From: an uncultured Hormoscilla sp.
GTDB lineage: Bacteria > Cyanobacteriota > Cyanobacteriia > Cyanobacteriales > Desertifilaceae
Length of the DNA: 64,000 nucleotides
NCBI GenBank assembly: GCA_963921275.4
Contig: OZ001293.3
Coordinates: 4,768,001-4,832,000, forward strand
Reading direction: 5' to 3'
This document shows, in pieces, positions 17,388 through 50,299 of this stretch. Made by a program: the position numbers and the translations under genes. Numbering within the stretch: position 1 is the first letter of the stretch; each line of letters opens with the position of its first letter. The notes under the pieces are model-generated. The model worked only from the letters and a program-made list of their open reading frames with translations. It was not told where the DNA came from and ran no database searches.

Positions 17388-18258
17388 GTGCGATTTGTTC
17401 TAGCCTAACGTGGTCAAACACGGAACGCTAGCCCGGTTTCATTAGCCGGGAACTCTGACCGCATGGGGGTTAAATTCCCCTCCCCCCAGGTACGGGGGTG
17501 ACACCGGTCCTCGGTGCTACGAAGCGACATCATCGTGGTGCTAAGCGAGGACTCAAATGTAGGATAACTGGCAGCCTAAGCCGGTGACGCCGCTAGGAAA
17601 GATATCCAAGGTTAGAGCAGGCAAACATGTGCAAGCCTCGTTATAAGGAACCAGCGAAATAAGGCTATATGCGCTGGCCTAAAAAGGAAATGGTAGCTAG
17701 TATTAGTTTTAGACTCTGGCTAATATAGTACTCAAATAGCTCCCGGGGTATAGTGTGGACCTAAAGGTATCGCGAAATGTTGTTAGGGAACGAAGTAACC
17801 TCTCGTGTGCTGTCCATCAGGACAAGTTAGATGTTAAGCGCAAGCCACGGGGGGAGGGATGGCCCAAGAAGCGAATGCCCGGGGTAATTCCTGGGATAAC
17901 ATCTACAGTAATGTAGATGATGCTGGGTAGCCAGCGCTGACGTGGGTCGGTGATACTAGGAAGCTGCTGGAATGAGTAATCCTAAAAAGCCACGGAACTA
18001 ATCCGAAACGCAAGTGGAGGATAAGGTATGGATAACTGGTAAAACTGACTTGAAAATGGTGATACTAACGGTTATCAGAACAACCACTCGCTAAACCAGG
18101 AAAGGGAAGAAAAGACAGGCGGCAAGGGCTAACGGAAGTAATTCCTATTAAGTCTACCTATGAAAAGGGCCTAGTACCCAGTAGCCGGATGCGGTGAAAA
18201 TCGCAAGTCCGGTTCCTCAAGAGAGGGTCGGGAAGCGATTCCCGGCTCGACCCCATCC
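17388..18258 (+). mobile_element. ORF-less group II intron (871 nt), antisense within the DUF4347-LRR gene
   Basis: GTGCG start; domain V AGCCGGATGCGGTGAAAATCGCAAGTCCGGTTC; domain VI ending CTCGACCCCATCC; EBS1 AGACTC (17711-17716) pairs 5/6 with GGATCT. Confidence 0.9.
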
Positions 18259-19027
18259 AAACTCAGTTGGGAGTTTCCCAGATACAGACAGCCAGGGCTG
18301 CCGTGGGAGAGTAGGTGCAGAACCTCTGTTTCTTTATGCTGTCGGAGAAGTTCGCTGATCTGTTCGATGCCATCGGACCGAAGGTCTAAGAGGAAAGATT
18401 TGGCCCCAGGCCGGATGCCGTCTATAAGCTGCTAGTAGTTTTCTAGGGAGGCATCCACTACTACCATGGTGTTGGCATTGGTATTATGTTTCATTTTTTG
18501 GTTTCTCTTGTATTTTTCTGTAGAGGTGCTGGTGTAATACTAGCCCGACTATTGTCATATTTCTGACTTACGCCGGAACGAGTCGCACCTAGGTCTATCA
18601 TAACTCAAGTTGCGACCTATTTAAAAAATCTTAACAAATATGGATTACCTACTTAGACTTTACGGATCTTTAGGTTTTTTTCGTCTCTGATACATAAAAT
18701 TACTTTTTTATGCTATCCGGAGAGTTGGTCATTCTGACCGTCCCTTTAAAGACAAACAGGGCACCGCTTATGCCTGCCGCCCCGCCGCTATTGCCTCCCT
18801 GGGCCCCCGTTGCTAAAGGTCAGGTTATCGAAATTGATGGTACTGCTTTCTGACAAAGAACAGCCAGTGTTGGTCGTTACTACTAATAGTGTTACCGTTT
18901 CCTGAAATTGTTAGCTGGACGTATTCTGAGGTAGCACCCGGTCATAGTAATATATCTTTTTCTGGTTCTGTCTTAACCTGGCTAGCTTAGGCTCATTTTT
19001 GACTAAAGCAGGCTGGGCTGTTTTTTG

Positions 19028-19346
19028 GCCATGTTTGGGCTAAAAATGGCCATTTTGGGGTTAACCATGGCCATTTTTGGGCTAACCTAGACCATTTGGG
19101 ATTAAAATAGGCCACTTTGGACTAAACTAGGCCATGTCTGAGCTAAACTAGGCCATGGGAGGGCTAAAAATGGCCATGTGAGGGCCATGTTTGGGCTATT
19201 TTAGGCCATGTTTGGGCTATTTTAGGCAACTTTGGGCTAAATTAAGCCATGTCTGAGCTAAACTAGGCCAAAGATGGCTAAGCTAAGCCATATCTGAGCT
19301 AACCGGGGCCATGCTTGGGCTAAACTAGGCCATGTTTGGGCTAAAA
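19028..19346. repeat. Degenerate ~21-bp tandem repeat array (about 15 units)
   Basis: Consensus GGCCATGTTTGGGCTAAACTA repeated head to tail. Confidence 0.85.
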
Positions 19347-19939
19347 CAACTTCATAAATTGTCGGTGACGAGAGTATTAGCCTGCGGAGGCGGGTAGGAA
19401 AGGTGTAGCCGGGTTTTTTAGGGTTCGGGCGGTGGGGTGTTTTCCAACAGCAAGCGCTTTTCGCGCGACTCTCCCTGTGTAACTGGTTTTTTCGGAACCA
19501 AAGCTACAAGCTCCCAGCGGCAAAGTAAATATCTAAGACTACCGGTGCTAGCGAACACACTACCATCTAATATGCTAACATAATTATATGATCGGAGTGC
19601 TGTTGTAATTCATCCACTATTACCATGGTGTTGGCAAAGAAATTGTGCTTTACTTTAAGGTTGCTGAATTGATTTTGAGGTGCTAGTGTAATACTAGCCC
19701 GACTCTCGTCTTGCAGTTCTCCCGATACCGCAAGACGAGAGCACCGTCAAGCGGCCGGATCGCATGGAGTGGGTGAGTTGTGAGAGCAATAACTTGCGGT
19801 ATCGGGAGAATCGCCAAAAACTCAGGTAATTTCCGTCGGAGGGTCTGTTAAAATAAAATATCCCGGGAATCAGAAATTCAACAGTTTAAAATTGAAGCTA
19901 TAATTAACGTTGGTTTGTCTGTTATGATTAGGAAATGAA

Positions 19940-48281: not shown

Positions 48282-48351
48282 TTAATTTCTGAATTCAACG
48301 TATGATGTTGGCGTTGCATATTTTCGGGATGAAAGTTTGTCAGTAAGGACT

Positions 48352-49174
48352 TATGTTAGTGTATATCTGCCTAGGTTCGATTGGGAAGTGGCGAAGTTCT
48401 CAGATTACATTCAACCTGGAGAAACACCGAAATCTGTCAGAATTGCCATTGGCGTGAATTTAGATGGTAAACTCGTGGAAGCAGATCTATCCGATCCAAA
48501 TACCTGTCACTTTTTGGTGGGAGGGACCACCGGAAGTGGCAAAAGTGAGTTCTTGCGATCGCTTCTCCTCAGTCTGCTAGTTCGCCACTCTCCCGATTTT
48601 TCCGGCACGGTACATCTGAAAATCGCCCTAGTTGACCCCAAGCGGGTAACTTTTCCCGAGTTTGAACAGATGCCCTGGTTGTATTCACCGGTGGTCAAAG
48701 ACCCAGATCGGGCGATCGAACTAATGGCAGAATTAGTGGCAGAAATGGAATCCCGTTATCAGCTATTTGAATCAGCAAGCTGTGCTGATATTAATGCCTA
48801 TAACCTCAAATCTGTCAAGCAATTGCCCCGGATAGTCTGTATCTTTGATGAATATGCCGACTTCATGGCCGAAAAGGAAAGTCGCACCGAGTTAGAACAA
48901 AGCATCAAGCGCTTAGGGGCCATGGCACGTGCTGCTGGCATTCATCTGATCGTTGCTACCCAACGCCCTGAAGCTAAAGTTGTTACCCCGATCGTCCGTT
49001 CTAACTTACCAGGGCGAGTGGCACTCCGCACCGCTAGCGAAGCAGATTCAGTTATTATTTTAGGTGGCAAGCAAACAGCAGCCGCATACCTGTTGGGGAA
49101 AGGCGATCTACTTTATTAAGTCGGTTCTCAGTTGGAAAGATTACAGAGTTTGTTAACTGAAAATATTGATTTAT
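48352..49174 (+). pseudogene. 5'-truncated duplicate of the FtsK-domain segment (direct repeat of ~39924-40731)
   Basis: Core almost identical to the first copy; 15-bp in-frame insertion at ~48597; CAA changed to TAA at 49117. Confidence 0.9.
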
Positions 49175-49302
49175 ATTTGGACAAATAAAAATCACTGGAA
49201 GTCTGATTTTTTCAGAATGTATGTGTACGGCATCATCGGCGCGATCGCAAATTTTATGTAGGGGCACGGCATCGGCAAATTATCGGTTAACATGATTATG
49301 TA

Positions 49303-50299
49303 GTGCGACTCGTTTCGGCCTAACCTGTACAAACACGGAAAAGCCGAGCCAAAATTGGACTGAATGTTTAGAACCAAAACTAATCATAATCAGGCTCAAT
49401 ATGGTAACTCTGGTCATCATGGGGGTTAAATTCCCTCTCCCCAGGTGTGGGGGTGACACCGGTCCTTAGTGCTGCGGAGTGACATCACCGTGGTGCGGAG
49501 CAAGGACTTAAATGTAGGATAGCTGACAGCCCAAAGTCGGCAACTCCGCTAGGAAAGATGCTCATGGTTAGGAAAACGAATCTGTGAAAGCCTCGTTATG
49601 TGTAACCAGCGGAAGAAGGCTTACACGCTGGCCTAAAAAGGAAATGGTAGCTAGTGTTGGCTGTTGCATATGGCCAACATCACACTCAAAGTAGCTCCCG
49701 GGGTAAAGCAGGGACCTAAAAACATCGTGAAATGATACCAGGGAACGAAGTAACTCCACGTGTGCTGTCCATAACTACTCGACTATCGACCGGTGGTCAG
49801 GAGATAGGGACCAGTTAGATGATAAGCGTAAGCCATGTGGAGAGAGATGGCCCAAGAAGCAAAGGACAGGGGTAACTCCTTGTATAAGTGGTGCAGGAAT
49901 GTACCGGCAGACGTGGGTCGGATATAGTTGGAAATCTTGGGTGGAAGTATCCCTAATACGTACCAAAAATCAGGAGAAATCCTAGATTGTAATATGGACT
50001 AAAACTCTAGCCGGGTAAAACTTGAAAAGTCCCCTAATGACGAGACAGGGGCAATGTTAGCAAAGAGCGGTATAAGTGGTTTCCTGGATACCCCCCGCGA
50101 ACCTTCCGGAGCTAGATACGAAACAGTCCTATCGACTACCATAAAGGGGAAAAACTGCATAAGAAGAGGGACAAAGGGAGCAATCCCCAGTAATCCTGCC
50201 AATGACAAGGTCCAACTAACCAGTAGCCGTGTGCGATGAAAACCGCATGCACGGTTCGAAAGGGAGGGTTGGGAAGCGATTCCCAGCTCGACCCCTAAT
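49303..50299 (+). mobile_element. ORF-less group II intron (997 nt) inserted in a REP-like palindrome
   Basis: GTGCG start; domain V AGCCGTGTGCGATGAAAACCGCATGCACGGTTC; ends CTCGACCCCTAAT; EBS1 TGCATA (49665-49670) pairs 6/6 with TATGTA. Confidence 0.92.

Follow-up and report, generated by a model that had tools for sequence, protein, structure and literature searches.

A diverged Hormoscilla family of group II introns that lack an ORF, with exon-binding sites matched to their own insertion sites

We analysed a stretch of 64,000 nucleotides (hereafter the window; positions 4,768,001 to 4,832,000 of contig OZ001293.3, assembly GCA_963921275.4) from an uncultured Hormoscilla, a cyanobacterium living as a sponge symbiont. 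The window contains three group II introns lacking an open reading frame (ORF) for a reverse transcriptase (RT), here called i1, i2 and i3, and a fourth one, i0, which encodes an RT. All four are on the + strand. The DNA is cyanobacterial, as judged by HIP1-like GCGATCGC sites and by its best protein matches, which are proteins of Hormoscilla metagenome-assembled genomes (MAGs). We consider it highly probable that i1-i3 belong to a diverged family of ORF-less, IIB-like ribozymes that has multiplied in the Hormoscilla lineage and has moved after the loss of its ORF, with RTs supplied in trans. The existence of the family, the absence of the ORF, the match between exon-binding sites (EBS) and intron-binding sites (IBS), the covariation of helices and a presence/absence polymorphism are directly supported by the data. 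Each copy keeps the catalytic scaffold, consisting of the 5' GUGCG, domain I with the EBS loops, and domains V and VI. According to the proposed mechanism, the intron RNA would be spliced out and would then reverse-splice into DNA sites matching its own EBS, where it would be copied to DNA by the RT/maturase of an RT-encoding intron present in that genome. New targets would become accessible through mutation of EBS1 and EBS2.

The boundaries proposed for the three introns in an earlier note on this DNA, made from the sequence alone, proved to be exact. The 5' ends read GTGCG at positions 17388, 43277 and 49303, and the 3' ends fall 13 nt past the first base of a conserved CTCG, as had been described. 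The sequence blocks quoted there as common to i1-i3 are invariant in a three-way alignment, whose mean column identity is 75% over the whole length; pairwise identities are 72-76% (blastn, E 1e-91 to 1e-128). The Rfam covariance model RF00029 represents domains V/VI and has a gathering score of 40 bits. It recognised i2 (47.0 bits, 44033-44110), i3 (42.1 bits, 50222-50299) and i0 (54.6 bits, 11515-11591) above this score, and i1 slightly under it (38.9 bits, 18180-18251). The statement that none of the three introns encodes an RT was borne out by a negative tblastn search with the RT of the window, and their longest open frames are of 58, 68 and 99 aa for i1, i2 and i3, respectively. When domain IV of i1-i3 was searched for RT remnants with the i0 RT under permissive settings (tblastn, E<=50, word size 2), only noise was obtained, bar the domain V read-through region.

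The family extends to other Hormoscilla genomes. A scan of a genome collection found at least 17 loci carrying a 19-nt block of the family and, among the matches listed, all come from three Hormoscilla MAGs. A nhmmer profile built from i1-i3 matched 37 segments, spread over all 17 loci. Ten copies from these loci have both ends, with lengths of 755-1047 nt, and were aligned with the three window introns. GTGCG is found at the 5' end of 12 of these 13 copies, the last one (locus L010) reading GGGCG after a deletion at the junction. Domain IV occurs in three length and sequence types in the alignment, according to our own reading of it. The earlier note had also remarked that the introns are followed by an A. 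This is true of i1-i3 and does not hold for the family, the +1 base of the 13 copies being A six times, G three times, and T and C twice each; since this base varies, the A shared by the window copies is a coincidence. No RT ORF was found by tblastn inside family copies at the 17 loci, the sole RT match corresponding to a separate i0-like intron in L012. A blastn comparison of i2 with 72,556 plasmid records gave 12 matching records, all in the domain V region only and covering at most 9% of the query.

Evidence for retargeting comes from the pairing of each copy with its own 5' flank. The EBS1 loops put forward in the earlier note pair at 5/6, 5/6 and 6/6 positions with the flanks of i1, i2 and i3, in each case a better match than with the flank of either other intron. 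We performed an unbiased scan in which every alignment column was compared with flank positions -16 to +4 in 12 copies. Two clean antidiagonals were obtained: six columns pair with positions -1 to -6 (10-11 of 11 copies each), and four columns pair with positions -10 to -13 (10-11 of 12 copies each). The first antidiagonal is the EBS1 of the earlier note, which occupies nt 4-9 within a hairpin loop of 11 nt and has its partner at positions -6 to -1 of the flank. The second is EBS2, a hexamer of variable sequence that immediately precedes the conserved AACCAGCG and has its partner at -13 to -8. The pairing was tested on 11 of the 13 copies, leaving out L010, whose 5' junction is deleted, and L016, whose EBS1 hairpin is deleted. 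EBS1 pairs with its own flank at 63 of 66 positions, as compared with a mean of 30.4 for deranged flanks, and none of 20000 derangements reached the observed value. For EBS2 the figures are 53 of 66 against 24.5, again with 0/20000 derangements. As an independent test, the EBS1 position set from the three window copies was applied to eight further locus copies from other genomes, and 47 of 48 positions were paired. Additional copies with an intact 5' end, in which the pairing was scored by eye, gave similar values (6/6 in L006, 6/6 in the outer copy of L009 and 5/6 in L011).

The EBS2 sequences suggested in the earlier note (CTAAT at 43492 and TCATG at 49562) were rejected. The loop in question is conserved and reads GCTCATGG in 5 of the 13 copies, which have unrelated exons, and its mean best 5-mer is 3.82 with own flanks and 3.68 with other flanks, that is, chance level. 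The two pairings are also in a mutually inconsistent register. The actual EBS2 hexamer is located 38 nt downstream of this loop.

The same flanks bear on another explanation, in which segmental duplication or recombination between repeats multiplied the copies as DNA and the EBS-flank matches were inherited from a few homing events. Two observations fit it: a 388-nt derivative of the family sits at three loci of one MAG (GUM202) with identical 5' flanks, the similar stretch extending only ~500-800 nt, and i3 is located in a repeated element. However, the 11 tested copies have unrelated 5' flanks, each matched by its own EBS1 and EBS2, a pattern that calls for a change of EBS together with site-specific insertion and not for copying along with the flanks. 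Moreover, the joined flanks of i1 and of i2 have no other copy within the window by blastn, apart from the transaminase paralogue. We therefore give this explanation very little credence.

Covariation was analysed in two regions of the intron. The consensus fold of domains V/VI, drawn from 13 copies, contains 26 pairs, 10 of which display compensatory double changes. In the EBS region, the fold of 12 copies contains 33 pairs with 15 compensatory ones, and EBS1 occupies the terminal loop of a covarying hairpin. As judged from these alignments, the compensatory pairs in both regions show that selection acted on the RNA structure during the diversification of the family. The consensus fold also points to a candidate branch-point, the unpaired A in CTCGAC, 9 nt from the 3' end.

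Close pairs of copies suggest movement in the short form. i1 and the copy of L014 are 91% identical over 884 aligned nt; both are ORF-less, share the same domain IV and are inserted at unrelated sites. Of the 85 differences between them, 12 lie in the EBS2 hexamer and the EBS1 loop, which together make up 17 columns. Together with the outer copy of L009, they form a group with 89-93% identity and a common short domain IV, at different sites and with different EBS sequences. In L009, a family copy (3159-4083, reverse strand) is nested in the EBS1 hairpin loop of an L014-like copy (2846-4644) and destroys EBS1 of this outer intron. These observations bear on the possibility that the copies are independent deletion relics, each RT-encoding intron having homed separately, lost its ORF in place and been immobile since. 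The three domain IV types among the 13 copies would fit more than one deletion, and several copies are degenerate. Against this, the 89-93% identical copies share the same short domain IV in spite of their different sites and EBS sequences, no ORF remnants were detected, and no RT ORF lies inside the copies with the family-specific domain I block at the 17 listed loci. In addition, four close relatives have no intron at the i2 site, as described below, pointing to a recent insertion of an already short element, of which no long version is known. Independent relics are thus an improbable explanation.

The i2 insertion is polymorphic. Excision of i2 in silico from the diaminobutyrate-2-oxoglutarate transaminase gene yields a 430-aa ORF that aligns without gaps with a minus-strand paralogue at 45642-46922 (53% identity over 415 aa). 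As deduced from the reading frame, production of the transaminase must require splicing of i2. Four other Hormoscilla MAGs encode an uninterrupted 430-aa transaminase that differs from the conceptual spliced product of the window by 7-15 mismatches and has an identical junction (LDQW/KPGQ); the i2 site is therefore empty in these close relatives, as the check proposed in the earlier note had looked for. Given that these orthologues differ at only 7-15 of 430 residues, the insertion of i2, or its precise loss, appears to be recent. The earlier note had named two observations that would speak against its proposal, namely EBS-flank pairing at chance level and a lack of empty-site polymorphism; pairing is far above chance and the polymorphism exists. 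Its core proposal of a non-autonomous set of introns with one scaffold and retargeted EBS, inserted at unrelated targets, is supported by the 47/48 paired EBS1 positions, by the i1/L014 pair and by the empty i2 sites. Taken together, the empty sites, the 91%-identical copies with changed EBS and the nested copy support, indirectly, mobility in the ORF-less form.

We also considered that the introns could be splicing-only elements, no longer mobile here, whose old insertions are kept because they splice, like organellar ORF-less introns. The window copies, being just 72-76% identical, are no recent copies of one another, and bacterial introns without intron-encoded proteins (IEPs) are generally described as splicing-only in the part of a review used here (PMC4424553). 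However, i2 is missing from the four MAGs in spite of the near-identity of their transaminases, and neither i1, which is antisense to its host gene, nor i3, which is intergenic, is kept for host gene expression. This alternative is accordingly unlikely, and we retain movement of ORF-less copies as the explanation of the family.

Which RT could serve these introns? The ORF of i0, located 6 kb upstream of i1, contains the Pfam domains RVT_N, RVT_1, GIIM and HNH as well as a YADD motif, and looks intact. i0 is thus a candidate, though unproven, source of RT/maturase in trans. As a close parent of the family it was rejected, owing to the ~70% identity over ~130 nt, the weak profile match and the lack of RT remnants in i1-i3. 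Twelve RT clusters with 70-100% identity, that of the window included, were found among the best 120 relatives of the i0 RT, apparently from the source genome, which suggests that this genome holds many RT-encoding introns. By analogy with known systems, we infer that the ORF-less introns depend on an RT in trans and that they are currently active. As a side observation, the i0 RT ORF (9810-11585) stays open through domains V and VI, with its stop 6 nt before the intron 3' end at 11591.

Several results weigh against mobilisation of the family by RTs in trans, or against parts of the evidence for it. The RNA of i0 resembles that of i1-i3 only over ~130 nt (~70% identity, blastn) and gives a weak match to the family profile (57.6 bits, 9197-9616). 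Neither the window nor the 17 loci listed yielded an RT-bearing intron closely related in domains I-III, and a search of domain IV with the i0 RT detected no remnants of an RT ORF. The three domain IV architectures indicate that the family may not stem from one deletion event. The window copies themselves have flaws: in i1, one EBS1 position is mismatched, EBS2 pairs at only 4/6 positions and the RF00029 score is under the threshold, and in i2 a G stands opposite a G at -2. The EBS2 columns were picked from the same data that were then permuted, so that this statistic is less clean than that of EBS1. For EBS3, which in subgroup IIB (chloroplast-like) introns pairs with the first base of the 3' exon, a candidate column (the base after GGGGTA; 17751, 43638 and 49706) forms a Watson-Crick pair with the +1 base in 8 of 12 copies; as good a best column arose in 624 of 2000 label shuffles, so that the candidate is not significant once the scan of all columns is taken into account. 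Some copies are dead: in that of L003 (2132-3178, reverse strand), ~100 nt are inserted into the 5' strand of domain V, that of L016 (2768-3629) has no EBS1 hairpin and an altered domain VI, and that of L010 (511-1293, reverse strand) has lost its 5' junction in comparison with L015, whose upstream flank is similar. Finally, the 388-nt derivative mentioned above (~2842-3229, oriented; loci L001, L007 and L012, all from GUM202) arose by internal deletion. It consists of profile positions 1-405 fused to 985-1019 and has no domain V, and the 5' flank common to its three loci is also that of the full-length copy of L005, from another MAG.

A further-reaching version of this reading is that the family is a long-lived ORF-less lineage that diversified by itself while borrowing the RT/maturases of a distantly related intron lineage of the same genome, as a 'parasite of a parasite' comparable to the relationship between short and long interspersed nuclear elements (SINE/LINE). 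The 72-76% identity between copies, the several domain IV forms and the failure to find a surviving close RT-bearing parent in the window and the 17 listed loci led us to this idea, which we put forward tentatively and consider to be possible but doubtful.

The coordinates of the four introns, of their EBS and of the host features are collected in Table 1.

Table 1. Group II introns of the window, their exon-binding sites and associated host features
Feature	Position	Strand	Length	Details
RT-encoding group II intron i0	9196-11591	+	2396 nt	in fatty-acid desaturase gene; ORF 9810-11585, 591 aa
ORF-less group II intron i1	17388-18258	+	871 nt	starts GTGCG; antisense in DUF4347/LRR/cadherin gene
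EBS1 of i1 (AGACTC)	17711-17716	+		pairs with IBS1 17382-17387 (GGATCT), 5/6, mismatch at -4
EBS2 of i1 (ATAAGG)	17643-17648	+		pairs with IBS2 17375-17380, 4/6
ORF-less group II intron i2	43277-44111	+	835 nt	sense in diaminobutyrate-2-oxoglutarate transaminase gene
EBS1 of i2 (TGCACT)	43598-43603	+		pairs with IBS1 43271-43276 (AGTGGA), 5/6, G opposite G at -2
EBS2 of i2 (ATCTAG)	43530-43535	+		pairs with IBS2 43264-43269, 5/6
ORF-less group II intron i3	49303-50299	+	997 nt	in intergenic short repeat, between FtsK/SpoIIIE-family gene and Uma2 gene
EBS1 of i3 (TGCATA)	49665-49670	+		pairs with IBS1 49297-49302 (TATGTA), 6/6, one wobble
EBS2 of i3 (ATGTGT)	49598-49603	+		pairs with IBS2 49290-49295, 5/6
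DUF4347/LRR/He_PIG/cadherin gene broken by antisense i1	15374-18470	-		in-frame TAG at 18432-18434
Transaminase exon 1 (upstream of i2)	42421-43276	+		Aminotran_3 profile positions 9-276
Transaminase exon 2 (downstream of i2)	44112-44548	+		Aminotran_3 profile positions 282-402; junction LDQW/KPGQ as in orthologues
Uninterrupted paralogue of the i3 target repeat (diverged 'empty site')	51484-51548	-		blastn 78.8% over 66 nt across the insertion point, E=2.8e-8

The insertions differ in their consequences for the host. Deletion of i1 restores a 728-aa frame on the minus strand, in which the DUF4347 profile is then matched at 13-69 and 73-164 across the junction. i1 being antisense to this gene, it cannot be spliced from the host mRNA. 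Where the DUF4347 domain begins, the residues MVVVDASLENY and QLIDGIRPG are separated by an in-frame TAG (18432-18434, minus strand). Judging from this stop codon, the host gene is a pseudogene independently of i1, and i1 interrupts a gene that was already a pseudogene. No orthologue of the host protein was found, its best non-self matches being paralogues with 65-88% identity, apparently from the same genome. The LRR region of the gene consists of a tandem array of 72-nt units at 16332-16939 (8.4 copies, 92% matches). The position of i3 is 183 nt after the FtsK/SpoIIIE-family gene and 325 nt before the Uma2 gene; with i3 taken out, the two flanks joined together match the uninterrupted repeat paralogue of Table 1 across the junction. 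i0 is a sense insertion, and its removal restores the frame of the desaturase. tRNA genes were rejected as targets, none being found in the window.

Further observations concern the surroundings of the introns. The repeat into which i3 is inserted is a short cyanobacterial one, built around GGGGCACGGCA...CGCCGTGCCCC. Near the window start (26-232) it is present as three 70-nt units in tandem, and dispersed copies are present at 51484-51548 and at 49240-49302 + 50300-50330, the latter being the target of i3. With respect to the i2-bearing transaminase, four substitutions specific to the window relative to all four Hormoscilla orthologues are found in exon 2 (144 aa; residues 297, 330, 372 and 377) and one in exon 1 (286 aa; residue 229). 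This skew may hint at relaxed constraint downstream of i2; the numbers are small. The gene belongs to a cluster (41525-48080) that also encodes a TauD-family dioxygenase, a D-glutamate cyclase-like protein, the opposite-strand transaminase paralogue (53% identical) and an S-adenosylmethionine (SAM) methyltransferase, and which may correspond to a specialised-metabolite or compatible-solute pathway. Elsewhere in the window, the adjacent TPR-repeat genes at 22481-24622 and 24779-25720 appear to share duplicated sequence, with nested ORFs identically spaced. Weak matches to a microRNA model were obtained on both strands at 33574-33634 (RF03799, 26-30 bits, gathering score 90); this is probably a palindromic hairpin and no true member of that family.

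Such a set of introns is already known from Thermosynechococcus elongatus, of which the Hormoscilla family is a further case with wider divergence. According to the parts of the T. elongatus study used here (Mohr et al. 2010, PMC2882425), 17 of its 28 introns are ORF-less and have diverged into families by their EBS sequences. Most of them lie where the IBS matches; they also insert into introns of other kinds and insertion sequence (IS) elements, and are mobilised by the RTs of related introns. As with TeI3 of that species in the same account, the host is a cyanobacterium in which ORF-less IIB-type introns stand beside RT-encoding ones, EBS1 and EBS2 have diverged to fit the flanks of each copy, insertion has occurred into genes, into intergenic DNA and into other introns or mobile elements, part of the copies have degenerated, and both splicing and mobilisation are proposed to depend on RTs acting in trans. 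The T. elongatus introns are described there as sharing 85-100% identity, both among themselves and with the RT-encoding TeI4, and as having one deletion breakpoint in common and visible ORF remnants. On this basis the Hormoscilla family is unlike TeI3 in being much more diverged (72-76% identity between window copies), in displaying several domain IV forms with no ORF remnant found and no shared deletion scar, and in having no close ORF-containing relative among the window and the 17 listed loci, where i0 reaches ~70% over ~130 nt. The host also differs, belonging to a sponge-symbiont lineage and not to the thermophiles.

Other comparisons place the family among cyanobacterial and bacterial introns at large. 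In Trichodesmium erythraeum, 10 of 17 introns that splice in vivo are ORF-less and presumably rely on maturases that are encoded elsewhere (Pfreundt & Hess 2015, PMC4649490, in the part used here). Like Hormoscilla, this filamentous cyanobacterium carries many introns in protein-coding genes; the portion of that paper used here discusses them as splicing, and not as a retargeted multi-copy family with insertion polymorphism. The sections used of a review of the field describe bacterial ORF-less introns as rare and found in genomes with related IEPs that possibly act in trans (Zimmerly & Semper 2015, PMC4424553). Compared with this general picture, the Hormoscilla family is multi-copy and deeply diverged, with at least 10 complete copies plus fragments in at least 17 loci. 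Cyanobacteria reach ~100 introns per genome, according to the excerpt used of another source (PMC8919778). Our literature search found no paper on group II introns in Hormoscilla.

The mesophilic symbiont host of this family suggests that high temperature would not be needed for such a proliferation of introns. In engineered targetrons, changes of EBS1 and EBS2 on a constant ribozyme scaffold reprogram the DNA target, and the RT is provided from the same vector. Whereas targetrons are laboratory constructs, the EBS variation in Hormoscilla is natural, and the EBS1/EBS2 variants on one scaffold, each with its known target, offer a ready source of data on the rules of target recognition. The presence/absence polymorphism of i2 in a conserved transaminase gene offers a simple marker of ongoing mobility. 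If the helper RT is heterologous, the family would bear on the evolution of a common trans-acting splicing machinery. Finally, if the family is indeed a long-lived ORF-less lineage, its shared trans-acting splicing and mobility apparatus would be more advanced than that of T. elongatus, and its survival would be at odds with the idea that derivatives lacking an ORF fail to persist in bacteria.

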